Assembly (NCBI GenBank): GCA_044369355.1
Contig: JBIPMB010000002.1
Span: 1 to 34,025, forward strand
DNA length: 34,025 nucleotides
Direction of reading: 5' to 3'
Origin: Gammaproteobacteria bacterium
GTDB lineage: Bacteria > Pseudomonadota > Gammaproteobacteria > UBA1113
Each line of letters starts with the position of its first letter. Positions within the stretch are counted from its first letter, which is position 1. The position numbers were made by a program, and so were the translations under genes. Under the pieces are notes generated by a model. The model did no database searches. It was given only the letters and a program-made list of their open reading frames with translations, and had not been told where the DNA came from. This document shows positions 7,012 through 32,315 of this stretch, in pieces.

Positions 7012-7021
7012 TCTAAAAATA

Positions 7022-7172: not shown

Positions 7173-7253
7173 TTCATAGTGAATGACAAGATATTTAAAG
7201 GATTGTTGTGTATAGAGAATTTTTTGCGACAGAATACAAATTAGAGGTAAAAA

Positions 7254-8030: not shown

Positions 8031-8060
8031 TATGATACACACGTTTTTGAGCGCCAATTT

Positions 8061-8915: not shown

Positions 8916-10322
8916 AATCTGCATGGTATTCGTCCCACCCAGCACGCCTATGTGCTGTCCTTTAGTGAGTATAACGGTATCACCCGCCGTTAAGAAATCA
9001 TGTTGTAGTAAATAATGCAATGCATTTCGATCTATGTGATCTAAATCTTCATGCACCATACTAAAATGTATAGGCACAACACCACGATATAAAGCCATTT
9101 TACGCAAGCTTTTCATATGCGGAGATAATCCTAAAATAACAATCCCAGATCGTATACGCGACATCCACAGCGTAGTAGCGCCGCTTTCTGTTAGACAGAC
9201 TATGGCTTTAGGTGATAAATGATTAGCCGTATACATCGCCGCCATGGCAATCGCTTCATCGGTGTACGAAAACTTTTTGTCTAAACGATGATGCGATACT
9301 AACGTTCTAGGATGTTGCTCTGCGCCCAAACAGATTCTAGACATGGCTTCGACTACACGCACGGGATCATCGCCATTAGATGTTTCAGCTGACAACATCA
9401 CGGCATCGGTGCCATCTAACACGGCATTGGCCACATCCATAACTTCTGCGCGCGTAGGAATGGGGCTGTGGATCATCGATTCCATCATTTGAGTAGCAGT
9501 GATAACAACTTTGTTTTTAGCGCGCGCCTGACTAATCAATTGTTTTTGTATGGCAGGTAGAGCGGCATCGCCTATTTCTACACCTAAATCGCCACGTGCT
9601 ACCATAATGGCATCGCTGGCTTCGATAATGCCGTCTATATGATCTAAAGCCTCGCGGCGTTCTATTTTGGCAATAACGGCAGCATGTCCTTTCATATCGG
9701 CAATATGTTTTCTAGCTGCTAGAATATCTTCGGCCGAACGCGGAAATGAAATGGCGATATAATCTACGTCTAAACTCAACGCAGTACGCATATCTTCCTT
9801 ATCTTTAGCGGTGAAGGATTCGGCTGATAAACCACCTCCTAAGCGATTAATGCCTTTGTGATCGGAAATAGTGCCGCCGCTTATGACTTGACACTGAATT
9901 TGGGCACCTTTTACTGCTAATACTTTGAAACTCAAGCGACCATCGTCTACCAATAAAGTATCATTAGCGACTACATCTTTTGGCAAATCTTTATAAGTCA
10001 GGCCTACGCTGTGCGCTGTACCTGCATCGTCAGCGAGTAATGCATCGAAGGTAAAGAGATCATTGTCTTTCAGGACTAGAGAGCCTTTTTTAAAACTGCC
10101 TATGCGGATCTTCGGCCCTTGTAAATCGGCAATGATGGAGATTATTTTTTTTTGTTCGGCGGCAATGCGGCGTATATGGGCTACGCGAGTGCTGTGATCG
10201 TCTGCAGTACCATGCGAGAAGTTTAAACGCACTGCGTCTACGCCCGCGGCGATTAAACGTGTTAATACGGTCAGATCATCAGTGGCTGGGCCTAAAGTGG
10301 CGATAATTTTAGTGCGACGCAT
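8886..10322 (-). CDS. pyk: Pyruvate kinase
   Basis: N-terminus MRRTKIIATLGPA, MVARGDLGVEI, the ATQMLESM-like ATQMMESM motif, and a length of 478 aa. It is the last gene of the tkt-gap-pgk-pyk array. Confidence 0.95.
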   Translation of the reverse strand: MRRTKIIATLGPATDDLTVLTRLIAAGVDAVRLNFSHGTADDHSTRVAHIRRIAAEQKKIISIIADLQGPKIRIGSFKKGSLVLKDNDLFTFDALLADDAGTAHSVGLTYKDLPKDVVANDTLLVDDGRLSFKVLAVKGAQIQCQVISGGTISDHKGINRLGGGLSAESFTAKDKEDMRTALSLDVDYIAISFPRSAEDILAARKHIADMKGHAAVIAKIERREALDHIDGIIEASDAIMVARGDLGVEIGDAALPAIQKQLISQARAKNKVVITATQMMESMIHSPIPTRAEVMDVANAVLDGTDAVMLSAETSNGDDPVRVVEAMSRICLGAEQHPRTLVSHHRLDKKFSYTDEAIAMAAMYTANHLSPKAIVCLTESGATTLWMSRIRSGIVILGLSPHMKSLRKMALYRGVVPIHFSMVHEDLDHIDRNALHYLLQHDFLTAGDTVILTKGQHIGVLGGTNTMQILVVQSTQNS

Positions 10323-15040: not shown

Positions 15041-16381
15041 GTGAAGCGATTGATATTTAAGACATTATTAGCCTGGGCTAGGGCGGATAAACATGACCCT
15101 TTGTTGCTCAGGGGCGCCAGACAAGTGGGTAAAACCTATATTGTGGAACAATTTGCACGTCAATATTTCCCCCATTTTGTGAATATTAACTTTGAATTGC
15201 AGCCGGAATTTAAGGCTTGTTTTAATCGTTTAGATCCACACGCTATTATCACCAGCATCGCAGCCTTAAAGCGACAGGCCATCGTGCCAAATGAAACCTT
15301 ATTGTTCCTAGATGAGATCCAACAATGCCCACAAGCGATCGTAGCCTTGCGTTATTTTAAGGAAAATATGCCGCAGTTACATGTGATTGGCGCGGGATCT
15401 TTATTAGAATTTACCTTAAACGATGAAAACCTACAAATGCCCGTAGGCCGTATACAATCACTCTATGTTAAACCTTTGTCATTTAGAGAATTCCTAATGG
15501 CCAATGGTTATGATCAAATCATCGATGTGTTAATGCAAGCAACGTTGCAAACGGGAGTTCCCGATGCCATTCATCAAGAGCTAGAGCGCTGTTTAAGAGA
15601 ATATTTTGTTTTAGGAGGAATGCCGGAAGTCGTGGCAGATTACCTGCAAAAGAAAGACTTAATCCAAAGCCAGATGAAACAGACTTCATTACTGAATATC
15701 TATCGCAGTGACTTTGGAAAATATGCTAAACAGACAAAACATAAATACATGCAGGTTCTATTTGACAAAGTGCCTGGACTCATTGGAACGCAAATTCAAT
15801 TCCAAAAAATAGATGCAGATGTGCATTCGCGTGAGCTCAAAGAGGCGCTAGGCTATTTGTGCAATGCGGGCATTATACATTGTGTTTATCACAGCAGTGC
15901 GTCTGGTTTGCCGTTAAAAAGTTTAATCAATGAGAAGAAATTTAAATTGATCTTTCTAGACATAGGTTTGATTAACGCTAGTGGATATTTAGATCCTTAT
16001 TTGATGCTCAATGAAAATTTAATGATGGCGAATCGCGGCGCATTGGCAGAACAATTTGTAGGTCAAGAATTACTAGCTTGTGCTGCCGATTATCTACCTG
16101 GAGAGTTATTTTATTGGCAGCGTGAAAAAACAGGCAGTATGGCGGAAGTAGATTATGTTATTAATGTGGATTCACAGATTGTTCCTATAGAAGTGAAATC
16201 TGGAAAAACGGGAACTTTGAGATCTTTACAGGTGTTTTTAGATGAAAAGAAACTGCCTTTTGGAGTGCGGCTCTCTTTAAAACCATTGGAATTTCATAAC
16301 CGAATATTATCTGTGCCATTGTATATGATCGAAGAATTGCCTAGGTTGGTAAGAGAATTGCGGCAATCTATTCATCAATAG
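15041..16381 (+). CDS. AAA+ ATPase of the COG1373 / DUF4143 family
   Basis: Walker A LLLRGARQVGKT, Walker B-like LLFLDEIQ, a C-terminal region typical of DUF4143 (EVDYVI...IPIEVKSG, PD-(D/E)xK-like), and a GTG start. Confidence 0.75.
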   Translation: MKRLIFKTLLAWARADKHDPLLLRGARQVGKTYIVEQFARQYFPHFVNINFELQPEFKACFNRLDPHAIITSIAALKRQAIVPNETLLFLDEIQQCPQAIVALRYFKENMPQLHVIGAGSLLEFTLNDENLQMPVGRIQSLYVKPLSFREFLMANGYDQIIDVLMQATLQTGVPDAIHQELERCLREYFVLGGMPEVVADYLQKKDLIQSQMKQTSLLNIYRSDFGKYAKQTKHKYMQVLFDKVPGLIGTQIQFQKIDADVHSRELKEALGYLCNAGIIHCVYHSSASGLPLKSLINEKKFKLIFLDIGLINASGYLDPYLMLNENLMMANRGALAEQFVGQELLACAADYLPGELFYWQREKTGSMAEVDYVINVDSQIVPIEVKSGKTGTLRSLQVFLDEKKLPFGVRLSLKPLEFHNRILSVPLYMIEELPRLVRELRQSIHQ

Positions 16382-16388
16382 CGCTATG

Positions 16389-18281
16389 CTACAATTGGCT
16401 GGCTACAATTTTTTTAAGCCGCTCTATATCGGTTTTTCCAATGACGGTCAAATAAGAAGGAACATCACCTGCTCCAAAAGCCTCACCCGATAGTAAGTAT
16501 AAATGCTGATATCCTCGAGCATGCAATTCTTTGGCTACGTCTAAACCTTTTAAGTCGGAAGTGGCGTAATGATTATCCAGAAAAATTTTAGTGTCTTTTG
16601 GATATTTATCTACATTATTTAGAAAATTCTCCGGATCACGGTATTCCTCCGTGTTGTGAGTAGCAAAAATATGCAACACCAACATATTGACGAAAGTTCT
16701 ATCATCGTCCACAATAACCGCGTCGATTTTTTCTGCCTCAACATTTTCTGTACCTTGCTCATCAGCCGCAGTAATTTTAATCAAAATTTCAGAAGCCAAT
16801 TGCTTAGGTAGAATTTTGGTGTCAATCTTCGCTGCCTGTGCTTGGATCAATGGATCAGCATAATGGCTAGTGACCAACATAGATCGCTTTATTTTACTCT
16901 GGGAAATGATGTGCAAACCATTTAGTTCTTGCGTGAGTAATTCATAGTCTGACAGCAGAAAAACACTCTCTTTTTCAGTTGGCGCCAAAGCCTGGATAAA
17001 TTCCAATGCTTCACGTCCTTGTTGAAAATGTTTAAGTTGTATTGAAGCATCCTGGCTTAAAATGCTGTCAAACCTAACCCGCCATGCACCGTGTATAGAA
17101 GTATCATCATCTAGAATAACAACAATGTCATTCGGTCTCAAGGTTATTTCTTCAGCAATCCAGTGAGGTGCTGTGGCCCTAGGAAAAATCAATGTTATGT
17201 TAGTACCCTTACCCGGTTCAGATGCAATATGCAATTCGCCCTGATTGTGATCCAGCGTTTCCCACACTTGGGTTAAGCCTAAGCCGTGTCCTGACTTCTT
17301 CCCTTCTGTTACAGCGGTTTTATGCATGATTTTGTCAATCAATTCGGCAGACATGCCTTTGCCCGTATCTTGAATGATAATCCTGACCCATTCATTATCG
17401 GTTTCTAGTTGTAAATCTACTTTTCCGACTTGACCATCCAGAGCATCCACCGCATTATTGATTATGTTTGATAACATGCGCTTGAAAGCACTAGACTGTG
17501 TTTTAATAAACGCAAAATGGGTATTGGCTTCAAAGTGATAGTCGAATTTAACCGCCAGTTTATCGTATTGATACTTTTTGGCACTTAAGGTTTCCAATAA
17601 AACAGTAGATACTAAAATAGGGTGACGTTCTTCGTATTCACTTATTTCAGCGTTGTCTTTTTTCTGATATTGATGCAATAAATGATTGGCAATATCGCCT
17701 ATACCTATCGCTGCTTCTCTCAGCGCAATACGGCTGCCTTCTGGAAGTTGTACGCATTCTTTGATGATCACTAGTAAACTACCCAAGGGGGAACGTATAT
17801 CGTGTGCCACTTGATTGGCTAATTGGGTAAATTTTTCTTGTTGTTTTTCAAAAGCTTTGTGCTTTTCGCTTTCAACCCGTAAATTTTCAGCTTCTTTCTT
17901 ATCTGTAATTTCTATTGCAGTGCAGATAGTTCCTACCACATTACCGTTGTTGCCAAATAATGGCGCTCTGACCGTTTCATAGTACCTAAATTTACCAGTT
18001 GCTACATCTACAATTTTTTCTTCGATTTTTATTGGAGTATTATTTTTTAAAACCATGCCAACTATATCAGTTAATTCATCAGCGATTTCTTTAGGATAAT
18101 AATCATGATATGTTTTACCAACTAGCACCTCTTTTATGCTGGTTCCACTGCTGCCTATAGCCTCCAGGCATAAGTCATTACCCCCTAAAATTATGTAATT
18201 TATATCTAACCAATAAATTGGAATAGGTATCAATGGGGCGATACGATCTAACTCTTCAAATATTTTATCTCTTTTAAACAT
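16389..18281 (-). CDS. Cytoplasmic hybrid sensor histidine kinase: PAS, HisKA, HATPase_c and two receiver-like domains
   Basis: PAS-like N-terminus with no TM segment; H-box QVAHDIRSPL (about 17786-17810); N-box NIINNAVDAL; G-boxes DTGKGM and GHGLGL. Two REC-like modules follow (VILDDD...LLSDYEL and VIVDDD...IFLDNHY). AGGAG lies 6 nt upstream of the ATG, and the gene starts 25 nt after the NRPS stop. Confidence 0.85.
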   Translation of the reverse strand: MFKRDKIFEELDRIAPLIPIPIYWLDINYIILGGNDLCLEAIGSSGTSIKEVLVGKTYHDYYPKEIADELTDIVGMVLKNNTPIKIEEKIVDVATGKFRYYETVRAPLFGNNGNVVGTICTAIEITDKKEAENLRVESEKHKAFEKQQEKFTQLANQVAHDIRSPLGSLLVIIKECVQLPEGSRIALREAAIGIGDIANHLLHQYQKKDNAEISEYEERHPILVSTVLLETLSAKKYQYDKLAVKFDYHFEANTHFAFIKTQSSAFKRMLSNIINNAVDALDGQVGKVDLQLETDNEWVRIIIQDTGKGMSAELIDKIMHKTAVTEGKKSGHGLGLTQVWETLDHNQGELHIASEPGKGTNITLIFPRATAPHWIAEEITLRPNDIVVILDDDTSIHGAWRVRFDSILSQDASIQLKHFQQGREALEFIQALAPTEKESVFLLSDYELLTQELNGLHIISQSKIKRSMLVTSHYADPLIQAQAAKIDTKILPKQLASEILIKITAADEQGTENVEAEKIDAVIVDDDRTFVNMLVLHIFATHNTEEYRDPENFLNNVDKYPKDTKIFLDNHYATSDLKGLDVAKELHARGYQHLYLLSGEAFGAGDVPSYLTVIGKTDIERLKKIVASQL

Positions 18282-18306
18282 TAGTTTCTCCTATCCTTAT
18301 ATAATC

Positions 18307-21300
18307 TTATGCATAATCCACTTCAACACTTTCAATTATGTTGGACAACATTTTACTAGTAATATTCGGCCATTGAAAATTTAGCTGATTTAATATGTAA
18401 TTTGTTTTATCTTGAAAAATAACTACCTTAGCTAAATTCTTTATATTGGGTCGTAGCCACCCTTGATGCAGCATAAATAACTCGATTCGATTCGTGTTAT
18501 GGCTATTTTTTAGTTTTATTAAAATATCATCAATAAACTCAGCAAATGATATTTGTTTAATATTATTTCTATACGGATGTAGTAGGGTATATAAATTAGA
18601 CTTCTCGGGATGAAATACATGATATATTTGATTGTATAATCTTTTCTGATTAAATAATGTTATAATTGCGGCCGCGGTATAGTCAACGGGAGAGATCTCT
18701 ATTTCACGTAATTCTTGAGGAATTATGCCTAATTCTAGTATTGCTTTGACACATTGAATGAATGCATTATCTTCTATATTTTCTTGCGCTTTATGCGTTA
18801 CTGAATTAATAGCAATATTACCTATACGGTATATATTAGCTTTAACCCCATGTTCTCTATACTTAAGGACAGCTTCCTCTCCTTCATATTTAGTTTTGGT
18901 ATAAATGTTGTCTAAATTAGCATGAACATTATCTATAATATTTTCAGTGAAAATATTATAATCTTGATTTGAAATGCATGTATTTGCAAATACACCTATG
19001 GTAGAAACATAGTGGAAATCTTTACGGGTTGTTTTAGCCAGTTCAAGCAAATTAATGGTTGATTGTACATTGGCTTGATAAAAATCAATATATTCCCCAT
19101 AATGTTTAACCAAAGCTGCGCAATGAATAATGCTGTCAACATTACCTACTAAATTCTGATATGTCAATTCATCCAGCCCTAAATTAATCTGCGCAATATC
19201 AGATTTTAAAACAGTTAACCTATGTTTGTAATCATTTAAATTTACGCCAAAGTAATATTTAAATTTATTGTTAACTCGTTCATAAGCAGTTATATGTTCG
19301 GAAATTCTTACTAATAAGTATATCGTATGCTTGGTTTCTAGCAATAACTGATGCAAAATATGACAGCCTAAATATCCAGTAGCCCCGGTTAATAATATTT
19401 TACAAGCAGGCCTAGTTTCATTTTCAAATTCAAAAAGTTTAGCTTGTATTTGATATTGAGTTCGTTCATCTTCTATTGTTATATTATTATCTTCGTTGCC
19501 AGAATCCAATTTGGAATAGATTAATTTAATTTCTTCAAGTTTATCCACTAAATTAAAGTTGGCAGCTGAAGAAAGCTCAGCAAGTTTGGCTGGCGTCTTA
19601 AGTTCAAATATATTATTTAGCGTAATATTAAAGTAACGTTGTAATTTGAATAATAGTCTTATAGCCAATATGGAGTTACCACCCCATTTAAAAAAACTGT
19701 CGTTAATACCAATTTTCTTTACCGCCACCCCTAAAACATCCGCATAAATCGTACATATTCTTTGTTCTGATTCATTTCTTGGGCCTATATAATCATCTGT
19801 ATTGGCAATAGATTGCGGTTGAGGAAGTAATTTTATATCTAATTTGCCATTCCTAGTTAATGGGAATTCCTTCAGCCAAACAAAAGCATTTGGAACCATA
19901 TATTCAGGTAATTCGGATGCTAAATATGTTAGGATTAAATTTTCAGCTAATTTTGTGTCAGATATGTAATAAGCAACTAAGCGTTGCGTATTTCTACCTT
20001 TGATATCAGTTTGATCTTGGCATAATACCAAGGCTTGTTTTATTTCTGGATAGTTCGATAACGTAGTTTCTATTTCGTTTAACTCTATTCTTAAACCACG
20101 TATTTTTATTTGGCTGTCATTACGCCCTATGTATTCAACATTTCCATCAGGTAGATAACGAACTAAATCGCCCGTTTTATATAATCTACTATTTTTACCA
20201 CATTGCTTTTCTTTTTCAGTTTGAAATGGATTAGGTATAAACTTTTCAGCCGTTAATTGTGGTAGATTTAAATAACCTCTGGCTAAACCCACGCCGCCAA
20301 TATACAACTCACCTATCGCACCAATTGGAACTGGTTTTAAATGACTATCTAGAGCATATAGTGTAGATTGCTCCAATGGATAACCTATTGTAGTAAGTTT
20401 ATCGTGAGTTATTCGCTGATTTTTAAAGTCAGTAATGTCGTAACTTACTTCTCCGGCCTCAGTTGGCCCATAATAATTGATATATTTTATATCGATATTC
20501 TTGTCAACTAGTGACTTTCTAAACTTTTCCCCACTTAGATTTATTGTTTTTAATCTATTAAATATATCTTCTTTTTTAGGGTAACTCTGTATTACCTCTA
20601 ATTGAGAGGGAACAAAATGACAAAAGTTTATATTATTTCTCGTAATTAAGCTATTGATTTCATCTACATCAAATACGGATTTAGTAATATAAAGTGATGC
20701 TCCAGATAGTAAAGTCATAAATATATCGGAAAAAGATACGTCAAAAGTGTAATTGGTTTTAAATAGATATTTATCTCTGCTATTTATACCGTTTTTTTCG
20801 TTCATAGACATTATTCTAATAGTGGCGCCACAATGTTCTATCATAACTCCTTTGGGATTGCCGGTGGTGCCACTAGTATACATGACATAAACCAAATTCT
20901 TACTGGTTATATTTAATTTAGGATTATCTTTTATCTGTTGTTTTAGTTTATATTGTGTCTCATAGCTGTCTATAGACAAAATGTCTGTATAATGACTGGA
21001 TGTAGACTTGGTAAGTATATTATTGTAATGGCAATCATTTGTGATAACTACTTTTGCTTTTATATCTTCTAGTATATAGCGGATCCTTTTTTCAGGATAT
21101 GCCGGATCGATAGGTACGTAAGCAGCGCCAGCCTTCAGTATTGCTAATATGGCTATTAACATATATTGGCTTCGATTTAAGTGCAATGCAATTAAATCAT
21201 CGCCTTTAAGGTTGTAGTTAATTCTTAAATAATGAGCCAGTTGATTTGATTGCTCGTTTAATTCAGCATATGTTAATTTAATGCCTTCGTAAACGACAGC

Positions 21301-22698
21301 GATATTATTTGGTGTTTTGTCTACTTGGGCTTCAAATAATTCTTGGATAGTTTTGCTGGCTTTATAATACTCGTTAGTTTTATTCCAGCCATATACAATC
21401 TGGTTGTATTCCAACTTACTTAACACGGAATATTCATCTATCAGCTTATTGGTTATATTAGCACTTAAATCGTCCAAAATAGTTAAAAATATTTGTTCAT
21501 AATGGCGTATAAATTTTGTTAAAACATCTTCATCTATTTTTAATGTATTATATCTCACCCTAAAATTCGGTATATTCTCCAACATTTCTAGTTCGAAAAT
21601 AATTTTTACTGGCAAATCTATGTTAAATTCAGCATTTATTTTAAGTGTTTTTACATCAAGAAAATCAAAAGCCATATTTTTTAGATTTGTTTGAGCAAAC
21701 ATGATAGCCAATAAATCATTATTTACATTATGCATAATCTTATTTATCGGGTAATGGCTTGCATTTTGCCCCATAGACTTGATTGATTGGATAAAATCTT
21801 TATCTTGTTTAAACAAATCAATTATTCTTGCTGTAGCACTAAATTCATAAACATTAATGTTTGTATTAATCTGTGCGCCAGAGATTAAAGGTATGCCGCC
21901 TTTAATCGCTATAGGATAACTAAGCCCAATTTTATTGTTCCCAGTATACTTGTGCAGTAATATGGCCAATATACATTTGCTATAACTATATACTGTAGCG
22001 CCAAATTTTTTAGTTGTGTTAAGGAGTTTTTCAGTTATTTCTTGTGTAAGCTTAAATCTATATTCTTTAATATTACTTATATTGCTTTCAGATTTAACCC
22101 ATCTAAGATCAACCGATTCAACATCATTTAAGTATTTCCTCCAAAAAGGTTGATAAATACCATCATATTTTTCTAATTGTTTCTCAAGCAAGTCAGTGGT
22201 ATCTATTAGCATATTTTCTTGTTGCGACATAGTATAAGCTAATTTATATGAGGGTGAATTATAATAATTAGAGATTTCAGAGATTAGGGTATTGAATGAA
22301 CCCCCATCAATCAATAAATGATGCAGTACTAAGATAAATCTAAAGTTTCCACTAGCTTCAGTAAATAAAGCAAACCGGTATAAAGCTTTGGTTTCAATTT
22401 CAAATGGCACAGATACATAATTTAAAATTTGCTCTCGGGTATGAGGATATTTAAAATATTCAAGTTTAGGTATTTCTGTATTTTTTATCCAATACAACTT
22501 ATCTTCTATCTGTATGACATGGCTGTTTATAATTAAATAATCTGATGCAAATCGGTAAAGTGCACACTCTAATCGATTTACATCTAAATTAGCAGATAAA
22601 ACTTGATCAAATACTATATTGTATCGACTATTAGAAGGATCAAGTTTCCATTCATTATAAAATATTGTATGGTACGGCGATAGCTTTATCGTGTACAT
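18307..22698 (-). CDS. Single-module nonribosomal peptide synthetase, domain order C-A-T(PCP)-R (terminal thioester reductase)
   Basis: C domain HHLLIDGGS (about 22303-22326). A-domain cores are LTYAELN, LKAGAAYVPID, YTSGTTGNPKG (about 20849-20878), FDVS, NYYGPTE, GELYIGGVGLARGY, YKTGDL and NGKLD. PCP motif FFKWGGNSI (about 19672-19686). R domain LLTGATGYLGCHIL (about 19369-19390) and YTKTK. Confidence 0.92.
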   Translation of the reverse strand: MYTIKLSPYHTIFYNEWKLDPSNSRYNIVFDQVLSANLDVNRLECALYRFASDYLIINSHVIQIEDKLYWIKNTEIPKLEYFKYPHTREQILNYVSVPFEIETKALYRFALFTEASGNFRFILVLHHLLIDGGSFNTLISEISNYYNSPSYKLAYTMSQQENMLIDTTDLLEKQLEKYDGIYQPFWRKYLNDVESVDLRWVKSESNISNIKEYRFKLTQEITEKLLNTTKKFGATVYSYSKCILAILLHKYTGNNKIGLSYPIAIKGGIPLISGAQINTNINVYEFSATARIIDLFKQDKDFIQSIKSMGQNASHYPINKIMHNVNNDLLAIMFAQTNLKNMAFDFLDVKTLKINAEFNIDLPVKIIFELEMLENIPNFRVRYNTLKIDEDVLTKFIRHYEQIFLTILDDLSANITNKLIDEYSVLSKLEYNQIVYGWNKTNEYYKASKTIQELFEAQVDKTPNNIAVVYEGIKLTYAELNEQSNQLAHYLRINYNLKGDDLIALHLNRSQYMLIAILAILKAGAAYVPIDPAYPEKRIRYILEDIKAKVVITNDCHYNNILTKSTSSHYTDILSIDSYETQYKLKQQIKDNPKLNITSKNLVYVMYTSGTTGNPKGVMIEHCGATIRIMSMNEKNGINSRDKYLFKTNYTFDVSFSDIFMTLLSGASLYITKSVFDVDEINSLITRNNINFCHFVPSQLEVIQSYPKKEDIFNRLKTINLSGEKFRKSLVDKNIDIKYINYYGPTEAGEVSYDITDFKNQRITHDKLTTIGYPLEQSTLYALDSHLKPVPIGAIGELYIGGVGLARGYLNLPQLTAEKFIPNPFQTEKEKQCGKNSRLYKTGDLVRYLPDGNVEYIGRNDSQIKIRGLRIELNEIETTLSNYPEIKQALVLCQDQTDIKGRNTQRLVAYYISDTKLAENLILTYLASELPEYMVPNAFVWLKEFPLTRNGKLDIKLLPQPQSIANTDDYIGPRNESEQRICTIYADVLGVAVKKIGINDSFFKWGGNSILAIRLLFKLQRYFNITLNNIFELKTPAKLAELSSAANFNLVDKLEEIKLIYSKLDSGNEDNNITIEDERTQYQIQAKLFEFENETRPACKILLTGATGYLGCHILHQLLLETKHTIYLLVRISEHITAYERVNNKFKYYFGVNLNDYKHRLTVLKSDIAQINLGLDELTYQNLVGNVDSIIHCAALVKHYGEYIDFYQANVQSTINLLELAKTTRKDFHYVSTIGVFANTCISNQDYNIFTENIIDNVHANLDNIYTKTKYEGEEAVLKYREHGVKANIYRIGNIAINSVTHKAQENIEDNAFIQCVKAILELGIIPQELREIEISPVDYTAAAIITLFNQKRLYNQIYHVFHPEKSNLYTLLHPYRNNIKQISFAEFIDDILIKLKNSHNTNRIELFMLHQGWLRPNIKNLAKVVIFQDKTNYILNQLNFQWPNITSKMLSNIIESVEVDYA

Positions 22699-22743
22699 TG
22701 TTAATTACGCACAATATGTTTTTTTAACATTTAAAATATATCC

Positions 22744-23733
22744 TCATTGCTCGGACAATTTAGCAAAGGATTCAGGGAGTAAATCGCCGTGTGCAAAATT
22801 GAGAGATATGTGTTGCTCGATTTGTAATAATTCTGCGGAAGAAAGATTCAAATCAGCAGCATTAACGTTTTCTTCCAAATGCGCGACTTGTTTTGTACCC
22901 GCGATAGCGACTACATTATCAGCTTGATTTAGAACCCAAGCCAATGCAATCTGACCAGGGGTTACGCCTTGATTATGTCCTATATCTCTTAATACAGATA
23001 TCATCTGCAAATTGTGTTTGATATTTTCAGGTTGAAATCGCGGTAAAACTCTGCGTAAATCATCTTTTTCTAAAGTATCTAAGCTCGCTATAGTCCCGGT
23101 AAAAAAACCTTTGCCCATAGGTCCATGCGCCACAAAGCCAATGTTAAGCGATTGACACAGAGGAATGATTTCTTCTTCAGGTTTCCTGTGCCATAGAGAA
23201 TATTCGGATTGAATTGCGGTTAAAGGATGAATACTATGTGCTTTGGCAATGGTCTTTGCAGAAACTTCAGATAAACCTATATGGCGTACTTTACCTTCTG
23301 CGACCAGTTCAGATAAAGCGCCTACGCTTTCTTCGATGGGTGTATTGGGATCCACTCTATGTAAATACAGTAAATCTAGATAATCGACTTCTAGACGTTT
23401 TAAAGTTGCTATACACGCGTCTTTAATATACTTTGGGTTTCCATTCACACCTAAGACTTCGCCAGTTTCAGAACTTCTCACCAGACCACACTTGCTGGCA
23501 ATCACAACTTTATCTCTAAATCCTTTAATGGCGCCTGCCAACAATCGTTCATTATGCCCTAAGCCATAGCAATCTGCAGTATCAAAATGGGTTACTCCCA
23601 ATTCGAAAGCTCGGTGTATCGTTTTAACGGATTCTAGATCGTTGGTTTTACCATAGTATTCAGACATTCCCATACAGCCTAATCCAAGATTAGAAATTTG
23701 TAATTTTTTTATGCCTAAAGTTTTATTTTTCAT
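22744..23733 (-). CDS. Aldo-keto reductase (NADPH-dependent oxidoreductase, Tas/YajO-like)
   Basis: LGLGCMGMS, FDTADCYG, the catalytic Asp/Tyr/Lys/His context (D..Y, ASKCG, LYLHRVD) and IAGTKQVAHLEEN. The ATG at 23733 (MKNKTLGIKKLQIS) gives the canonical AKR N-terminus, whereas the ORF track extends 47 aa further to 23874. The gene ends 45 nt upstream of the NRPS start. Confidence 0.85.
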   Translation of the reverse strand: MKNKTLGIKKLQISNLGLGCMGMSEYYGKTNDLESVKTIHRAFELGVTHFDTADCYGLGHNERLLAGAIKGFRDKVVIASKCGLVRSSETGEVLGVNGNPKYIKDACIATLKRLEVDYLDLLYLHRVDPNTPIEESVGALSELVAEGKVRHIGLSEVSAKTIAKAHSIHPLTAIQSEYSLWHRKPEEEIIPLCQSLNIGFVAHGPMGKGFFTGTIASLDTLEKDDLRRVLPRFQPENIKHNLQMISVLRDIGHNQGVTPGQIALAWVLNQADNVVAIAGTKQVAHLEENVNAADLNLSSAELLQIEQHISLNFAHGDLLPESFAKLSEQ

Positions 23734-24121
23734 AATAATTTCCACAAAGCGTAAAATATCTTTGTTTAACCATTGATTATCTATACCATTATACTTCAAG
23801 ATGTGAATTAAACTAACCGTGATGTTATATTCCACAGGATAGTTCGGTCTGCTCACGAGCCAATTTACATGCATTTTTAAGTATAATCGTATTAATACTA
23901 ACGGTACCTTGCTTTATATATGCCGAGTCTACACTAATTTTAATTTTTTATCTAGCAAATCAGCCATCATAATCACACTGTGTTAATGCCGTATTAATGC
24001 TTTTTATATTTTGACAAGATTTCAGCTTGCACAAGCATACTATTCATCTATATACTCGGCGCTGCGTATGAGCTAACGCGGGCCGGAGACATAGAAGCTC
24101 AATTCAGAGGAGTATACACAC

Positions 24122-24931
24122 ATGGTCGAAACAATACCTACCCCAAAGACAGATGTTACATCAGATGAAAAGCAGTTGGAGTATGAACAAAAATTAGCAA
24201 CGGCTTCAGCCATAGTAAGGAGTATTGCGCATGAACTGAACACACCACTCTCCGCTATAGACATGGGAGTCAAGGGTGCAAAAAACTATTTTTTAGTGCT
24301 GTTAGAAAATTATCAACTGGCGAAAAAGAATAATTTACCTGGACTAAAACTCATTCCGCCTAAGCATTTCGAAGTATTATCTACTTTATTTGACGATCTA
24401 GAGAGAGAGGTCGATTTTAGTAAGCTTTTTATAAAAATCCTCATTCAAAATATGAAGCGGGATCTAACCCAAGAAGACAGCAAGAAAGTGCAAAATATAT
24501 ACACTTGCATAGAAGAAGCATTGCTACAGTACCCTTTTGCGTATAGAGAAGAAAGTCTAGTCCATTGGGATTCCAAGAAGAGCTTTTCCTTTATTGGTTC
24601 TGATTTTCTCATTATATATGTTTTATTTAATCTTTTAAAAAATTCTCTTTATCAAATAGCAAAAGCGGGCAAAGGTCGGATTCAGTTGTGGCAAACTATT
24701 GAGCATAATGCCAATGTTTTACATTTCAAGGATACCGCTACCGGGATTCCAGAAGATATAAAAAGCACCTTATTTCAACCCTTTGCAAGTAACCGCCAGC
24801 ATGGTATCGGCTTAGGGTTGGCTTTCTGCAATAAGGTAATGCAAAAACTAGGCGGGAGTATTGAGTGTTGCTCTGTTGAGGGAGAATATACTGAATTTTT
24901 GCTCTATTTCCCGCCAATTAAGAAACCATAA
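24122..24931 (+). CDS. Small soluble histidine kinase (HisKA plus HATPase_c only; no TM or recognisable sensor domain)
   Basis: H-box SIAHELNTPLSAI, N-box LFNLLKNSLYQI, G1 DTATGIP, G2 HGIGLGLAFC; GAGGAG Shine-Dalgarno sequence. It is divergent from the AKR-NRPS-kinase operon. Confidence 0.8.
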   Translation: MVETIPTPKTDVTSDEKQLEYEQKLATASAIVRSIAHELNTPLSAIDMGVKGAKNYFLVLLENYQLAKKNNLPGLKLIPPKHFEVLSTLFDDLEREVDFSKLFIKILIQNMKRDLTQEDSKKVQNIYTCIEEALLQYPFAYREESLVHWDSKKSFSFIGSDFLIIYVLFNLLKNSLYQIAKAGKGRIQLWQTIEHNANVLHFKDTATGIPEDIKSTLFQPFASNRQHGIGLGLAFCNKVMQKLGGSIECCSVEGEYTEFLLYFPPIKKP

Positions 24932-25258: not shown

Positions 25259-28200
25259 ATGTTTGTTATTAGGTATGTGCAATTTTTATTTACAGCTATT
25301 ATTTTGGGATTTCAATGGATGGCGCTACAGTGGATGAGGGTGGCGCAAGGTTCTGTCTCGCAAAATGAGAGTGCACCTAGAAGTGTTACTACTACCGATG
25401 AGCCCGATCAGGGGCCCTTACTGATTCCTTCACTGATGAAAGTATCTCCACTTTTGCCGCTGTCGCTTTTTGCGGGCAGTGTAGTTTGGAGCCGATCCAT
25501 AGCCGTTAGAGGAATCAGCGCACATAAACAAAATTTACCGTTGGCACAATTCTATCAAAATAGTGTAGGCTTTATGCGTAGAGAGGCGGCATTTAACTTA
25601 GCTTTGGGCCTATGGATAGGAATAGTTGAATTTTATCGTGCAGAAAAAGAGGAGCCGCCCGAATTTCTAATTTTCTTTTTAACGACACTATTCTCAGAAT
25701 TATCGCTGAACTTGTCTGCAGGTTTTTATGACCTTTGCACCCAGAGAAACGGAGGAGCCTATTTTTTTTCAAAGTTAAAAAATATTCTTTTACACACTAC
25801 GTTTCCCAGTGCCGCCACAGCACTGCTGACGTATCGTTATTCATTCGACATCTTATATAGGCGAGATGCTATAGCCAATAAATGGCTGTGGATGGCTTTG
25901 GCAGGGGCAGGACCACAAGTCCCTAGGCAAATAGCACTATTCTGCTTTTCAAAAGCGGCACAGGTACTGTCTTTTTATTTACGGCCCAATAATGTTATTG
26001 CAATAACGGATGAAGAATCATTGCGGGCTTACTGTTCACAAGCGGATGACGAAGCATCTTTCACCGAGGGTGAAATATCGGAAACGGAGACAGAGATAGA
26101 GGAATCCTTGTCCTTATTGTCGGGTCCGGTTGAATCTAGGCCCAGTCACGTTGTATTCGGAAGTTCTATCCCTTGGTTATTATTGGCGCCTATAGCGACA
26201 ATGGTATCCTGGTTTGCGGCAGCGATATTGTGTGCATGGGAAGATAAATCGCTGCAAGATGATAAATACAATGACCTTTCCTTGCCCTTACTACAAGTGG
26301 CAACGGGTATGACTGTAGGTGTAGTCGCAGTAAATGTGCTATGGGGAACGGTGGTGGGTGTAAAAACGCTGTGTCATAAACGGCATCAACCGTTGCATGA
26401 GAAGGAAGAAGAAAAAGATGAAGATGATACTCAGGATGAACGGGTGGATGATTTTCAGGAAAGCTCAAGGCGCAAGAAGGTCAAACCTAATTTCGTGCCC
26501 AATCTTAAGTTAGCGGGAATAAAGGCGCTACCTTCGTCTGCTACGCTTACCGCTAGAGAAAAACGAGTTGGGGGAATAGAGATACAGCGTGAGTTGTATC
26601 GTAAACTCGGGACTCAGTTAATGACCTCGGAGCATGACTTCAATTACAATGAAGCTAGAGATTCTCTAGATAAAGCCAGTAAATTGGGTGATCAAATAGC
26701 CTGGTGCTATTTGGGATTTTTATATGAATATGGCTTAGGCGTTACGATATCCTTGCCTGCCGCTGCATATTGCTATGCTAAAGGCAATGAAGACAATGCA
26801 TTGATTAAACTGATACAAGGCGTATGTTACTTGCGGCGGTTAGAAGTTGGTGCATTAAGTTTTGTAGAAGACGCTATAGAGATGTTGATAAAGGCGATTG
26901 AACTGAGCAAAGCGTGTAAACTTAAAGATTGGCAAAGTACGATTGATTTTTTAAACCGTATTGCAGATACTCCAGAGGACGTGAGCGCTAATCTTATCTT
27001 AGCTTTGGTCTATGAATTAGGTTTGCTGGATGTAAATAGCAATACAGGCCGTGCCGCGCAGTACTATGAAAAAGTTGCTGAACGCGGTGAATCCTGGACT
27101 CAATATAACCTAGGGATGATCTGTCAAAATAAAATATGGCCCCGTAAAAATGCTAAAAAGGCCTACGACTGGCTTCGTTTGTCTGTAGAGCCACGCCATA
27201 AAGTGGTAGAGCCATTGTATTGGTATAATTTAGGTCTTGCCTATCGAGATGGCGTGGGGGTGACACAAAATTATAGCGAAGCAATAAAATGCTTTGAATC
27301 TGCACGTGAGTTAGGCAGTGGGGTTGCTTATAATGCTTTAGCAACGATGTATGAAAATGGATGGGGCTGTGAGCGAGATGTGGATAAAGCGGCTCAATTT
27401 AAAGTTGAAAGTGAGCGTAAACGCGACAGTGGGCCGGTCAATCTTCTTCTGATAGAAGAAGAGGCGTTACCTGACCTAACACTAAAATTAAAACGCAAAA
27501 GCAGAGAAATGAAAGTAGGCTTCGTTGAGCTCGTTGATGAATTGATCCCGGTTAGGGTTTTGTGTGATTTTCATGATGATAGGCGAATCGATCACTTACC
27601 TATCCAGAAAGGCGAAATTTTGCGGGTACGTATCGAAAAAAAGAACTGGCTATATGCCATAAATGCACAAGGCTTAGAAGGATTGGTGCCTAGAAATGCG
27701 ATACGTCTTAAAAAAGAAAAGGGTGCTCGAGCAGGATCTAGTCAAAATTTATCCAATGGCTATAAGGTTATAGATGAAAGAGAGCTTAGCGATCAAAAAG
27801 ATTTAGACCAAAGTTTTTATACTAAAGTTTCTTTAGCTTTTTGGAAAGACCAGCAAATTGTGGTGAAAGAATTATTAGCGCATGCTCCGCCAGAAGAAGC
27901 AAATAATTTTGCAATGGAAGGGGAATTGATGACGCAATTAGACCATCCTAATATTGTAAAGCTGTTGGGTTTTGTCAATTCTCCACTCAAATTCATTATA
28001 GAATACATGCCCTTTGGCTCAGTATCGAAATGTTTGCAGAGAAAAGATCCCCGGGTTTCTCCTGAAAAACGACTTGATATTGCATTGGATATAGCCAAAG
28101 CACTTAACTACTTGCACGATAAAACAATATTGCATCGCGATGTAAAAAGCCAGAATGTTTTGCTGGATGCCGTCTGCGCAAAATTAGCAGACTTTGGCAT

Positions 28201-28741
28201 AGCAGTGCAATGCGAAGAGGGGACTATAATGTATGTGGGTAGCCGCAGAGGTACCTTAGATTGGCTTAGTCCTGAATTACTGGAAAGAGATGTTTGTGTG
28301 TATACGCGAGAAAGTGATGTTTATGCTTACGGTGTTTTTCTATGGGAGTTATTTTCGCATCAGGAAGCGCAGTTGGTTAAAGACTATCTTAATCAATCAC
28401 AGCCTTGTTTTCCAAAGATGCCACATGAGATCGTAATATTAATCCAGGGGTGTTGTGCGAAAGATCCTCAGCGTCGGCCTACCATGCCTTATATTGTAGA
28501 CGAGTTACTAAGACGGAAGGAAAACGCTTCCAAGGAAAAAGGAAAAGAAGAAGAGAGCACATCCGTATCTTTGGAAGAAGAACTTATTTTAGAAGAGCCG
28601 TCTGGCTTAAATGCTGCTAGTCGCTTGGGTGGCGAAGGATCTTCCTGGGGTGGTGGTGGCAAAAACCATTTTTTCCAACAAGCCAGTTCATCTGGTAGCA
28701 CCCAAACGCAGGTCCAACAATATAAACACTATTCTGTTTAA
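25259..28741 (+). CDS. Multidomain eukaryote-like protein: N-terminal polytopic hydrophobic region, acidic linker, Sel1/TPR-like repeats, SH3-like domain, TKL-type protein kinase domain and Glu-rich C-terminal tail
   Basis: Sel1 repeats span about 26689-27400 (AWCYLGFLYEYGLGV, WYNLGLAYRDGVGVTQNYSEAIKCF, AYNALATMYENGWGCERDVDKAAQF). The SH3-like segment spans about 27541-27710 (VRVLCDFHDD..LPIQKGEILRV..NWLYAI..GLEGLVPRNAIRL). Kinase motifs are VVK, E, HRDVKSQNVLL (28133-28156), DFG (28189-28197), SPE, DVYAYGVFLWELFS and DPQRRP. Confidence 0.85.
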   Translation: MFVIRYVQFLFTAIILGFQWMALQWMRVAQGSVSQNESAPRSVTTTDEPDQGPLLIPSLMKVSPLLPLSLFAGSVVWSRSIAVRGISAHKQNLPLAQFYQNSVGFMRREAAFNLALGLWIGIVEFYRAEKEEPPEFLIFFLTTLFSELSLNLSAGFYDLCTQRNGGAYFFSKLKNILLHTTFPSAATALLTYRYSFDILYRRDAIANKWLWMALAGAGPQVPRQIALFCFSKAAQVLSFYLRPNNVIAITDEESLRAYCSQADDEASFTEGEISETETEIEESLSLLSGPVESRPSHVVFGSSIPWLLLAPIATMVSWFAAAILCAWEDKSLQDDKYNDLSLPLLQVATGMTVGVVAVNVLWGTVVGVKTLCHKRHQPLHEKEEEKDEDDTQDERVDDFQESSRRKKVKPNFVPNLKLAGIKALPSSATLTAREKRVGGIEIQRELYRKLGTQLMTSEHDFNYNEARDSLDKASKLGDQIAWCYLGFLYEYGLGVTISLPAAAYCYAKGNEDNALIKLIQGVCYLRRLEVGALSFVEDAIEMLIKAIELSKACKLKDWQSTIDFLNRIADTPEDVSANLILALVYELGLLDVNSNTGRAAQYYEKVAERGESWTQYNLGMICQNKIWPRKNAKKAYDWLRLSVEPRHKVVEPLYWYNLGLAYRDGVGVTQNYSEAIKCFESARELGSGVAYNALATMYENGWGCERDVDKAAQFKVESERKRDSGPVNLLLIEEEALPDLTLKLKRKSREMKVGFVELVDELIPVRVLCDFHDDRRIDHLPIQKGEILRVRIEKKNWLYAINAQGLEGLVPRNAIRLKKEKGARAGSSQNLSNGYKVIDERELSDQKDLDQSFYTKVSLAFWKDQQIVVKELLAHAPPEEANNFAMEGELMTQLDHPNIVKLLGFVNSPLKFIIEYMPFGSVSKCLQRKDPRVSPEKRLDIALDIAKALNYLHDKTILHRDVKSQNVLLDAVCAKLADFGIAVQCEEGTIMYVGSRRGTLDWLSPELLERDVCVYTRESDVYAYGVFLWELFSHQEAQLVKDYLNQSQPCFPKMPHEIVILIQGCCAKDPQRRPTMPYIVDELLRRKENASKEKGKEEESTSVSLEEELILEEPSGLNAASRLGGEGSSWGGGGKNHFFQQASSSGSTQTQVQQYKHYSV

Positions 28742-31210: not shown

Positions 31211-31361
31211 CGAATTAGGTTACCCATTAACTACAAATGGGGGCCATTTTAGCATTTTCTGTGGCGAGGTGGTATCTTTGGAGGTGTTGACCTTTATTCT
31301 GTAAAGCATTAAAATAATATAAATCAATGAAATCCCCCGTTGATAAAATACGGGGGACTCT

Positions 31362-32315
31362 ATGTCTTTATTATTTCCCAGAAAAGCGCATGCTGTGTTA
31401 GGGCTAGATATCAGTGCCACGGCCGTTAAAATTTTGGAATTGCGCCGCGCCAATAAACAGTTTTGGGTACAAGGTCTTGCCGTAGTACCTTTAATACCCA
31501 ATACCATCGTGGATAACCTGATCAAAAGTCCGCAAAGTGTGATCACAGCCATTAAAGCTGCTTTAGAGCAGACGCACTTTAGTACGCGTCATGTAGGCAT
31601 TGCATTGCCTGCCGCGGCAGTTATTTCAAAAACAGTAGTCATCGATGCCGGTCTTTCTGAAGAAGAATTAGAAGCACATGTACAATTAGAAGCAGCAACC
31701 GCTATTCCTTTTTCTTTAGATGAAGTGTGTATGGATTTTTCAGTCTTGGGAGTGAATGAAAAAGATCCCACTAAAGTGGATGTATTATTAGTGGCGGCGC
31801 ATTTGGCACAGGTAGAGGCGCGCCGCGATGTGGTAGAAACCGCAGGCTTATTGGTTGATTGTATAGAGGTAGAAAGCTTTGCGGTGGAAAGGTGTGTTCA
31901 TTATTTAAGATATAAAGATGACCCTAAAACCATAGCGATGTTCGATCTTGGTAAGGTTACAATGATCTTAGTCGTAATACATCAAAGACGAGTTATCTAT
32001 ACGCACGAGGAATTGTTGAGTTCGCAATCATTAACAGAATCTTTAACGCCCCTATTGCGGCGTGCCATGCAAATGTTTCTTTCTTCTGCACAGAGTTATC
32101 CGATAGATGAGATCTTATTATCTGGCTCAGATATAAGTAGGGTAGCTGCAATAATTTCTGACGATTTGTCATTACCTGTAACCATAATAAACCCTTTTCA
32201 CACGATGCTTTTAGCCGATACAGTAAACGTACTACAGCTACAGCAGGAAGCGTCGGCTTTTACGATTGCCTGTGGGTTAGCATTGCGAGGATTAATGCAT
32301 TATGACAGAAATTAA
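31362..32315 (+). CDS. pilM: Type IV pilus assembly protein PilM (actin-like ATPase fold)
   Basis: N-terminus LGLDISATAVKILEL, a length of 317 aa, and a position upstream of pilN with a 14-nt overlap. Confidence 0.88.
   Translation: MSLLFPRKAHAVLGLDISATAVKILELRRANKQFWVQGLAVVPLIPNTIVDNLIKSPQSVITAIKAALEQTHFSTRHVGIALPAAAVISKTVVIDAGLSEEELEAHVQLEAATAIPFSLDEVCMDFSVLGVNEKDPTKVDVLLVAAHLAQVEARRDVVETAGLLVDCIEVESFAVERCVHYLRYKDDPKTIAMFDLGKVTMILVVIHQRRVIYTHEELLSSQSLTESLTPLLRRAMQMFLSSAQSYPIDEILLSGSDISRVAAIISDDLSLPVTIINPFHTMLLADTVNVLQLQQEASAFTIACGLALRGLMHYDRN

Follow-up and report, generated by a model that had tools for sequence, protein, structure and literature searches.

Gene organization of the locus

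The DNA analyzed here is a 34,025-nucleotide stretch of contig JBIPMB010000002.1 (assembly GCA_044369355.1, Gammaproteobacteria bacterium), referred to below in its full length as the window. Positions 16389 to 24931 hold genes for an aldo-keto reductase (AKR), a nonribosomal peptide synthetase (NRPS) and a hybrid histidine kinase with a PAS domain, together with a divergently transcribed small kinase. With moderate confidence, we interpret this locus as a synthase-sensor module in which the NRPS would make the ligand of the kinase's PAS domain. An earlier note on this DNA, made from the sequence alone, had proposed a synthesis and sensing unit of this kind; the comparative evidence for it, namely a PAS domain that follows the synthase, variants in which the PAS domain sits on a helix-turn-helix (HTH) regulator, and relatives of the kinase fused to other amino-acid-ligating enzymes, is given below. 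The genes and intervening segments are as follows.

22744-23874, minus strand: AKR gene, 376-aa open reading frame, first gene in transcription order
22699-22743, minus strand: spacer between the AKR and NRPS genes, 45 nt
18307-22698, minus strand: NRPS gene, 1463 aa, second in transcription order
18282-18306, minus strand: spacer between the NRPS and kinase genes, 25 nt, holding AGGAG at 18288-18292
16389-18281, minus strand: PAS hybrid kinase gene, 630 aa, third in transcription order
24122-24931, plus strand: small sensor-less kinase gene, 269 aa, divergent from the AKR-NRPS-kinase operon
23734-24121, divergent: intergenic region between the small kinase and the AKR, presumably holding both promoters

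On rereading the sequence, gene order, both spacers and the AGGAG element were found as the earlier note had given them. The AGGAG lies 6 nt ahead of the kinase ATG. No Shine-Dalgarno sequence was seen ahead of the NRPS ATG in the 45-nt spacer, and neither the 45-nt nor the 25-nt junction holds a terminator-like hairpin. Scans for sigma-70 promoters and terminators were uninformative, because the sites returned did not exceed those in shuffled sequences (for sigma-70 they were fewer).

The NRPS has a C-A-T-R domain order and an unassigned specificity code

Domain calls were made with Pfam and NCBIfam models on translated open reading frames and divide the NRPS into a condensation (C), an adenylation (A), a carrier (T) and a thioester reductase (R) domain.

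21364-22698, minus strand: C domain, residues 1-445; Pfam Condensation, E = 5e-21; HHLLIDG at residue 126
19819-21363, minus strand: A domain, about residues 446-960; AMP-binding; TIGR01733, E = 1e-119
19564-19776, minus strand: T domain; PP-binding, E = 7.7e-13; Ser1009 in GGNSI
18328-19401, minus strand: R domain; NAD_binding_4, E = 8e-51; TGATGYLG at 1104, Y1266 and K1270

The catalytic motifs claimed for this protein were all found, from HHLLIDG in the C domain through the A10 lysine (K952) and the carrier serine to the Rossmann motif, Tyr1266 and Lys1270 of the R domain; the A domain also has YTSGTTGNPKG, NYYGPTE and GELYIGG. Against the TIGR01746 thioester reductase model, the R domain reached 212.8 bits (E = 8e-63), just below the curated cut-off of 213.35. 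Across the NRPS family, the Rossmann motif and the YxxxK of this domain are conserved, so the catalytic Tyr and Lys, whose lack on a proper alignment would by the earlier note have counted against the signaling interpretation, hold up on a family alignment.

Anchoring on the core motifs gave the A-domain code D-V-S-H-N-S-Y-E-V-K, the identical string to that derived previously by hand. The code is the same in 10 of the 12 closest family homologs, and the remaining two differ at one position each. It has D, V, H278 and S301 in common with serine codes and differs from them at S239, N299, Y322 and E330; we judge that it is not the code of any standard proteinogenic amino acid. We attempted to assign a substrate to DVSHNSYEVK and made no match, and 2,3-diaminopropionate, 2,4-diaminobutyrate, homoserine or another small polar or cationic residue would be a guess only.

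Among 63 full-length family members there are many A codes, several of them unassigned, including that of the window. Those seen include canonical codes for Val (DAFWLGGTFK), Thr (DFWNIGMVHK), Asn (DLTKIGEVGK), Phe (DAWTIAAVCK) and Tyr (DASTIAAVCK), and a Ser code (DVWHFSLIDK) was found in the set of NRPS-PAS cassettes described below. Several genomes hold two to four cassettes, whose A codes differ in five of five comparable within-genome pairs. Dimodular family members with the order C-A-T-C-A-T-R exist, and the same C domain heads them.

The earlier note had read the C domain as a starter. Its alignments at 30 to 46% identity are confined to N-terminal C domains of multimodular NRPSs, internal C domains reaching at most 24%, and we therefore regard it as a starter by position and clade; the resemblance to characterized lipo-initiation C domains that a starter assignment might imply was not found. 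In a search of solved structures, the C-domain family profile scored 60 to 100 bits on elongation C domains (BacC, SrfA-C, TycB, and LgrA). HHxxxDG is retained by 59 of the 63 family members and is under selection, which, with the N-terminal-only clade, argues against a C domain that is inactive or epimerization-like.

A soluble PAS kinase with two receiver domains

The hybrid kinase divides into a sensor domain, a transmitter and two receiver (REC) domains.

17877-18281, minus strand: PAS sensor domain, residues 1-135; PAS_4, E = 1e-8
17172-17876, minus strand: transmitter (DHp and CA), residues 136-370; HATPase_c, E = 2e-19; PDB matches ZraS and KinB
16392-17171, minus strand: tandem receivers, REC1 residues 371-505 and REC2 residues 506-630

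The transmitter has H160 in the sequence AHDIRSPL, an N box at 275 and G1 and G2 boxes at 305 and 331. No transmembrane segment was found in this kinase or in the small kinase, and because both lack one they fit a permeant ligand. The description of the former as a soluble PAS-HisKA-HATPase protein was thus borne out.

The two receiver-like modules reported for its C terminus (260 aa) were invisible to Pfam, the Response_reg model giving no match to either segment even at E = 10. An AlphaFold2 model of residues 371-630, built from a 29-sequence alignment, has a pLDDT of 89 and consists of two (beta-alpha)5 domains joined by a disordered linker. Foldseek returned the tandem receiver of PleD as the best match to this model (E = 4e-6), and single receivers gave target-normalized TM-scores of 0.6 to 0.7. 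REC1 carries D391-393, D445, T471 and K493 and REC2 carries D525-527, D569, S598 and K616; this DD...D...T/S...K signature is conserved in both receivers across 109 homologs. Based on the model and the conserved residues, we take both modules to be real receivers despite the negative Pfam scan. The likeness to PleD lies in the pair of CheY-like domains. The window kinase differs in having no GGDEF output and in keeping the acidic pocket and the Asp, Thr/Ser and Lys in both receivers, and identity is about 12%.

Domain number varies among relatives of the kinase. Some of the proteins P0139-P0144, P0148 and P0152 have a third C-terminal receiver-like copy (an additional 100-120 aa), many relatives have one to three additional N-terminal PAS copies, and the relative at locus L005 has a REC plus a histidine phosphotransfer (Hpt) domain within the kinase itself.

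NRPS and PAS genes are paired, and in places fused, in many genomes

We surveyed the pairing from both sides. In an NRPS-first scan, an alignment of the family-specific C domain was searched against one genome per bacterial species, yielding 28 loci, all from metagenome-assembled genomes (MAGs) except three contigs of Gammaproteobacteria bacterium strain GD-1. The loci were read by tblastn with the window proteins, with Pfam applied to exceptions, and 25 of the 28 had enough downstream DNA to be evaluated. In 24 of these 25, the NRPS is followed, in the same orientation, by a gene with the family PAS domain. In 21 cases, this gene encodes a PAS-kinase-REC-REC protein (37 to 87% identical to that of the window over the full length, with several in-frame fusions to the NRPS), and in the other three (L017:4983-5828, L018:14461-15657 and L021:14456-15310) a C-A-T-R NRPS is followed by a one-component regulator, PAS-GerE, which has a LuxR-type HTH. 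An MFS transporter gene lies beside the NRPS/PAS-GerE pair in L017, and in L021 the PAS-GerE gene is followed by a gene for an Sfp-type phosphopantetheinyl transferase (PPTase; L021:15323-15949).

In a kinase-first scan, the REC-REC region was searched against metagenome contigs; it returned 78 loci, about 45 of which had both the family PAS domain and readable upstream DNA. In about 25 of these 45, an NRPS of the C-A-T-R type, with one or several modules, is fused to the kinase, overlaps it by 3 nt or lies immediately upstream of it. The pairing spans 33 to 85% NRPS identity and several bacterial classes, and some unfused NRPS/kinase pairs overlap by 3 nt. The earlier note had made the signaling interpretation depend on synteny of NRPS and kinase in related genomes, which proved near-universal among related loci.

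At least nine C-A-T-R::PAS-kinase fusion proteins occur among the NRPS homologs. Their C-terminal parts align with residues 1-625 of the window kinase at 32 to 50% identity, and the gap between the R domain and the PAS domain is 5-7 residues. We considered that the fusions might be assembly or frameshift artifacts and rejected this, because they come from different assemblies, carry five different A codes and stem from at least six distinct loci. From the two scans, we take the conserved core unit to be the C-A-T-R NRPS plus the PAS kinase.

A family of proteins of about 450 aa with no Pfam or NCBIfam match, absent from the window, was observed beside NRPS::kinase and GNAT::kinase fusions (L003:7817-9187(-), L006:8052-9416(-), L087:5899-7263(-), L019:17858-19189(+), L029:17203-18480(-), L031:8466-9824(+) and L034:16571-17917(-)). 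Identity among the members at L003, L006 and L087 is 69 to 72%. In Burkholderiales-like MAGs, these proteins may belong to the system as an additional component.

The PAS domain tracks the synthase and not its own kinase core

Comparison of the window kinase with its relatives, domain by domain, gives a mosaic of identities.

Window versus the same-code monomodular cassettes L009-L012, from distant genomes: PAS 65-72%, DHp-CA 38-45%, REC 41-44%
Window versus the GNAT-fused relative P0125: PAS 37%, DHp-CA 79%, REC1 82%
Window versus the ATP-grasp-fused relative P0145: PAS 25%, DHp-CA 71%, REC1 75%
Window versus L038, which has the same four-gene layout and a different code: PAS 40%, DHp-CA 65%, REC 60%

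Correlations were calculated on 35 non-redundant cassettes obtained by extraction with hidden Markov models, a set that replaced a stricter, tblastn-based set of 14. PAS identity correlated with that of the R domain at 0.75, the A-domain backbone at 0.58 and the C domain at 0.56; with the kinase core of the same protein the value was 0.21, and with the REC region 0.32. Within the window, GC content at third codon positions (GC3) is 0.23-0.25 in the NRPS and 0.26 in the PAS domain and shifts near 17876/17877 to 0.37 in DHp-CA and 0.34 in the receivers, values nearer to those of the rest of the contig. Overall GC content is 30 to 32% in the NRPS versus 40 to 47% in the flanks. The composition suggests that the NRPS and the PAS domain arrived or were exchanged as one piece. 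Because the identity mosaic, the correlations and the GC3 shift agree, we consider that synthase and PAS domain evolve, and probably move, as one cassette, with the transmitter best viewed as part of a lineage-specific chassis.

The same kinase chassis carries other enzymes

Many of the 611 sequences in the kinase homolog set have an N-terminal extension right before the PAS domain. One kind, a GNAT domain of about 205 aa, matches the N-acyl amino acid synthase FeeM and Acetyltransf_5 and, weakly, the LuxI-type Autoind_synth model and OlsB; others are an ATP-grasp ligase of about 423 aa and an NAD-binding domain of about 360 aa. At L064, an alpha-oxoamine synthase gene (L064:5411-6631(+)) overlaps the start of a PAS-kinase relative by 27 nt. 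Its product scored 393 bits on PRK07505, and 74 bits, below the cut-off, on the CqsA/LqsA autoinducer-synthase model. Other unfused relatives are preceded by GNAT proteins, alpha/beta hydrolases, an FAD oxidoreductase or proteins of no assigned family. The recurring theme is ligation of an amino acid to a partner of acyl or carboxyl type.

A second family without database matches (399-436 aa, 22 to 31% mutual identity) lies directly upstream of PAS-kinase relatives on the same strand (L082:7396-8706(+), L090:7263-8534(+) and L102:299-1498(+)) and may represent a synthase of a different type.

The AKR and the small kinase are accessory

The AKR matches Pfam Aldo_ket_red (E = 8e-78), and the best solved structure is the aldehyde reductase perakine reductase (AKR13D1; E = 5.5e-79, full length). 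The 376-aa reading frame is probably called too long: the gene as called in L001 starts at the position of M48 (23733), which we therefore take as the most likely start, giving 329 aa. Numbered from M48, the catalytic tetrad is D51, Y56, K81 and H125. The window AKR shares this D-Y-K-H tetrad with perakine reductase, which reduces an aldehyde to an alcohol with NADPH and which differs in being a plant alkaloid enzyme; we assign the window protein to the AKR13 type, perakine-reductase-like. AKR genes of 38 to 90% identity lie beside the cassette in the window, L001/L007, L003/L004/L016, L009, L038 and L105, and nearby in L037, in varying orientation.

The small kinase has HATPase_c (E = 6.5e-17), a weak HisKA and H37 in HELNTPL. 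The claim of a divergent second kinase without an input domain was confirmed, no sensor domain being found. Its best NCBIfam match is the LuxN kinase core (E = 2e-32). An ortholog of 85% identity occupies the same divergent position in L001/L007, and relatives of about 30% identity do so in L037 and L038. In L035/L036, where the genomic context is another one, a paralog (80% identical) was also observed upstream of a GNAT::PAS-kinase fusion, in divergent orientation; in L035 the small kinase (6499-7293(-)) and the GNAT::PAS-kinase gene (7807-10308(+)) lie next to a rimP-nusA-infB operon. Because the partner in L035/L036 is a GNAT fusion, the small kinase goes with the kinase chassis, whichever the synthase, and the two appear to have been duplicated together while the synthase changed.

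Co-occurrence of NRPS, AKR and PAS kinase elsewhere, which had been put forward as a three-gene unit, therefore holds for the NRPS-kinase pairing, whereas the AKR and the small kinase are, across the loci compared, recurrent but accessory; the conserved unit is narrower than had been claimed. The phenomenon itself is much wider, since it extends to a whole family in which other synthases and an HTH output occur as well.

Genomic surroundings

On one side, the locus is flanked by a DUF4143/AAA_14 ATPase gene (15041-16381, plus strand), which lies between the kinase and the transketolase gene, and then by a tkt-gap-pgk-pyk operon. The tkt gene directly follows the kinase in the 81%-related L001, and the ATPase gene therefore looks like a lineage-specific insertion. 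On the other side are a gene for a 1160-aa eukaryote-like protein kinase, PBP1A and pilMNO. The 1160-aa protein (25259-28741, plus strand), whose gene adjoins the small kinase, has Sel1 repeats, an SH3 domain and a eukaryote-like kinase domain (PK_Tyr_Ser-Thr, E = 7e-50), and it matches the LegK1 effector model weakly. Its relative at the same position in L001/L007 is just 47 to 48% identical, and the protein is effector-like and fast-evolving. A 110-aa open reading frame without a family match (31220-31552, minus strand) overlaps the start of pilM (31362-32315, plus strand) and is unlikely to be a gene. At a greater distance, an ankyrin-repeat protein of 459 aa adjoins the hydrogenase-maturation genes hypF, hypB and hypA (21-1400 and 1578-4865, both minus strand); the window holds no hydrogenase structural genes.

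A PPTase, an MbtH protein, an acyl ligase, an acyl carrier protein (ACP), an Hpt protein, a DNA-binding response regulator and a dedicated exporter were sought and not found in the window, which extends to its whole length what had been stated for the cluster about PPTase, MbtH, acyl ligase, DNA-binding response regulator and exporter. The nearest relatives are MAGs labeled Proteobacteria bacterium (gene order as in the window, NRPS identity 81%), Legionella sp., 'Neisseriaceae', Burkholderiales and Gammaproteobacteria. The ankyrin-repeat protein, the Sel1-SH3 kinase and the Legionella-like MAG relatives suggest an intravacuolar life in a host.

A proposed synthase-sensor mechanism

In the mechanism we propose, the A domain would load one amino acid, selected by a code that combines a Ser-like D-V-x-H-x-S scaffold with an acidic residue. 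Following NRPS logic, the N-terminal C domain would acylate the loaded amino acid with a donor from primary metabolism; the simplest interpretation is N-acylation with a donor that is provided in trans. The R domain would then release the product reductively as an aldehyde, and the AKR13 reductase, where present as it is here, could take the aldehyde to an alcohol. A free amino aldehyde that dimerizes to a pyrazine may be an alternative product. Comparative genomics points to a small, probably membrane-permeant N-acyl amino aldehyde or alcohol as the ligand of the PAS domain, which would control both the autophosphorylation of H160 and the passing of phosphate to the tandem receivers of the same protein; the small kinase encoded divergently would probably add phosphate to these receivers or remove it. 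Gene order, domains and motifs, the synteny with its overlaps and fusions, the agreement of PAS domain and synthase, and the exchange of outputs (kinase or HTH) and of synthases (NRPS, GNAT, ATP-grasp, or alpha-oxoamine synthase) are observed; the nature of the product, its binding to the PAS domain, the way in which phosphate flows and the output are inferred.

Several observations weigh against this interpretation. Only a minority of cassettes adjoin an AKR, and in one locus, from the Legionella sp. MAG PEQK01, the NRPS ortholog is followed by ribonucleotide reductase genes and no kinase. The window has neither an Hpt domain nor an output response regulator, and neither is conserved across 31 related loci. 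Acyl ligases and ACPs are not conserved around the cassettes, none lies nearby in the window, and the C-domain family profile scored 28 bits, below the elongation types, on RzmA (7c1h/7c1k), the one solved lipo-initiation starter C domain that appeared in the structure search. The window has no exporter, and where synthase and receptor are covalently fused, self-activation is favored, which sits awkwardly with sensing of population density. In partial Mantel tests, PAS identity followed A-code similarity when kinase core, REC or R identity was controlled (r = 0.27-0.38, p = 5e-4), and with A-backbone identity controlled r fell to 0.05-0.11 (p = 0.03-0.2). Because the covariation with the code is not robust to this control, we limit the claim to a PAS domain that tracks the NRPS as a whole, and co-inheritance of neighboring DNA could explain part of the match.

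We also considered that the cassette could be a cell-internal metabolic sensor, with the NRPS (or the GNAT or ATP-grasp enzyme) serving as the input module of the kinase: an amino acid, an acyl donor, ATP and NADPH would be turned into a ligand that the adjacent PAS domain reads at once, and each cassette would thus report the intracellular supply of one amino acid and not density. The fusions, which set the R domain 5-7 residues from the PAS domain, fit this well, as do the cytoplasmic kinases, the missing exporter, the proteinogenic specificities (Val, Thr, Asn, Ser, Phe, and Tyr) and the presence of several differently tuned cassettes in one genome; a further point in its favor is that the hosts look amoeba-associated and amino-acid-dependent, to judge from the ankyrin and Sel1-SH3-kinase proteins and the Legionella-like relatives. 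However, a 1463-aa NRPS is a costly means to an end that a PAS or Cache domain could reach by binding the amino acid directly, and a code of the window type does not match any standard proteinogenic amino acid. The N-acyl amino aldehyde or alcohol would leave the cell by diffusion anyway, and tailoring by an AKR suggests a finished product and not a transient reporter. We consider this explanation rather unlikely. Within the synthase-sensor interpretation, we have a slight preference for an autoinducer-like signal, self-made and diffusible, over sensing confined to the cell.

Two-component genes beside biosynthetic clusters are common, and the kinase might accordingly be an ordinary pathway regulator. 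The PAS domain would then sense an unrelated cue (redox, oxygen, or a host metabolite) and, through an unlinked response regulator, switch on an NRPS product aimed elsewhere, such as an N-acyl amino-aldehyde protease inhibitor directed against the host. Peptide aldehydes from R-terminated NRPSs are protease inhibitors according to work cited in PMC10979478, and the monomodular Red-terminated NRPSs of Legionella were described with no signaling link (PMC5126622). Ordinary regulation leaves unexplained why enzyme and kinase are fused in frame, why the PAS domain alone and not the transmitter tracks the type of synthase, why the same PAS domain sits on a LuxR-type HTH after an NRPS, and why amino-acid-ligating enzymes of three unrelated kinds occur as fusions to one kinase chassis. 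We regard it as improbable.

Another hypothesis is that the coupling is between proteins, with the PAS domain docking on the R or T domain of the NRPS so that the kinase, in place of sensing a released molecule, reads or controls the enzyme's loading or conformational state. The correlation of PAS identity is strongest with the neighboring R domain (r = 0.75), and fusion and translational coupling would give a 1:1 stoichiometry. Yet PAS domains behind enzymes as unrelated as GNAT and ATP-grasp proteins fit small-molecule sensing more easily than they fit many docking surfaces, and the PAS-HTH variants resemble classical ligand-dependent one-component regulators; we therefore hold protein-protein coupling to be very unlikely. 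Chance or hitchhiking of neighbors with no functional link, for which the PEQK01 locus and the non-universal AKR and small kinase could be cited, has next to no probability, being in effect already refuted by the synteny (24 of 25 loci NRPS-first and about 25 of 45 kinase-first, over 33 to 85% NRPS identity and several bacterial classes) and by multiple independent fusions.

Comparison with known systems

In its logic the locus, interpreted as a synthase-sensor module, is by analogy a synthase-receptor pair like CqsA/CqsS (Vibrio), LqsA/LqsS (Legionella), LuxM/LuxN and LuxI/LuxR. In the first three, as proposed here, the gene for a synthase that builds on an amino-acid-derived and an acyl unit adjoins that for the product-detecting kinase. 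The window small kinase scores best on the kinase core of LuxN, and the L064 relative, with a CqsA-superfamily alpha-oxoamine synthase overlapping its start, repeats the CqsA/CqsS layout, although its kinase is a soluble PAS protein. The differences are equally clear. CqsA is an enzyme dependent on pyridoxal phosphate and LuxM a synthase of its own type, whereas the window has an NRPS with reductive release; CqsS, LqsS and LuxN are polytopic membrane kinases, whereas the window kinase is a soluble PAS protein with tandem receivers. Synthase and kinase can be one polypeptide in the present family, and no LqsR- or LuxU/LuxO-like partner lies nearby. LuxI/LuxR finds its counterpart in L017, L018 and L021, where the NRPS is paired with a PAS-GerE regulator of the ligand-binding type, and in the GNAT extensions with their weak matches to Autoind_synth and to FeeM. 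The window family differs from it in using a PAS domain in place of the LuxR autoinducer-binding domain and an NRPS as synthase, and the window itself holds the kinase version.

The closest receptor analog of the window kinase is RpfS of Xanthomonas, which senses the fatty-acid signal DSF (PMC4159695). RpfS is a cytoplasmic PAS_4-type kinase whose N-terminal PAS domain binds this self-made, lipid-like diffusible signal; it is not known to be adjacent or fused to the synthase RpfF or to have tandem receivers, and its likeness to the window kinase lies in shared domain families.

As to the synthase, the same domain order is found in MxcG (the C-A-T-R enzyme of myxochelin), although the MxcG model fits well only the A-T-R part of the window NRPS, and in the monomodular C-A-T-Red 'cluster D' of Legionella (PMC5126622), which shares the predicted chemistry as well. 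Red-terminated monomodular NRPSs of Legionella are predicted to yield N-acyl amino aldehydes, alcohols or oxazolines (PMC5126622). The C-A-T-C-A-T-R synthetases for dipeptide aldehydes and pyrazinones of gut bacteria and staphylococci (PMC10979478) equal the dimodular members of the window family in layout. All three follow a similar predicted route, in which an acyl-aminoacyl thioester is converted to an aldehyde and then to an alcohol, oxazoline or pyrazinone, and all three differ in having been described with no dedicated, coupled or fused sensor kinase (PMC5126622, PMC10979478 for the latter two). The C domain specific to the window family stands apart as a separate clade. Full-text searches of the literature turned up no account of an NRPS coupled or fused to a kinase.

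The Pvf system (PvfC, A-T-R) and the Ham system, which makes valdiazen, are precedents for a small NRPS with reductive release that makes an amino-acid-derived signal. Their clusters carry N-oxygenases and other Pvf/Ham genes; N-oxygenases and accessory genes of the Pvf/Ham type are absent at the window cassette. To our knowledge, Pvf/Ham clusters have no coupled PAS kinase, and we know of no kinase receptor recognized for them.

Implications

That the pairing recurs across dozens of uncultured bacteria suggests a means, so far undescribed, by which bacteria make small molecules and sense them themselves. If the PAS domain reads the NRPS product, NRPSs would join the LuxI, LuxM, CqsA and Agr-type enzymes as dedicated signal synthases, and the cognate receptor would be identified from genome context alone. 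Receptors have rarely been identified for NRPS-derived signals such as the Pvf products and pyrazinones, and the family would then offer ready pairs of ligand and receptor whose chemistry can be predicted (Val, Thr, Asn, Ser, Phe, Tyr, and further codes). The enzyme::kinase fusions would be a Rosetta-stone case of 'enzyme as input domain', and the swapping of synthase-PAS cassettes between chassis would suggest how new signaling channels arise.

More tentatively, the family could constitute a distinct class of signaling device, a possibility that we think doubtful as a whole. In such a device, a cytoplasmic PAS domain, carried on a kinase-REC-REC or a LuxR-type HTH, would be permanently paired or fused with a ligand-making enzyme (C-A-T-R NRPS, GNAT, ATP-grasp, or alpha-oxoamine synthase), synthase-PAS cassettes would be exchanged between chassis, and several cassettes per genome, each tuned to a different amino acid, would serve uncultured bacteria of the Legionella-like and Burkholderiales-like kinds as parallel private chemical channels or as a metabolic readout that tells amino acids apart. 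Because the carriers are uncultured lineages with eukaryote-like proteins, the molecules may matter for life inside protists.

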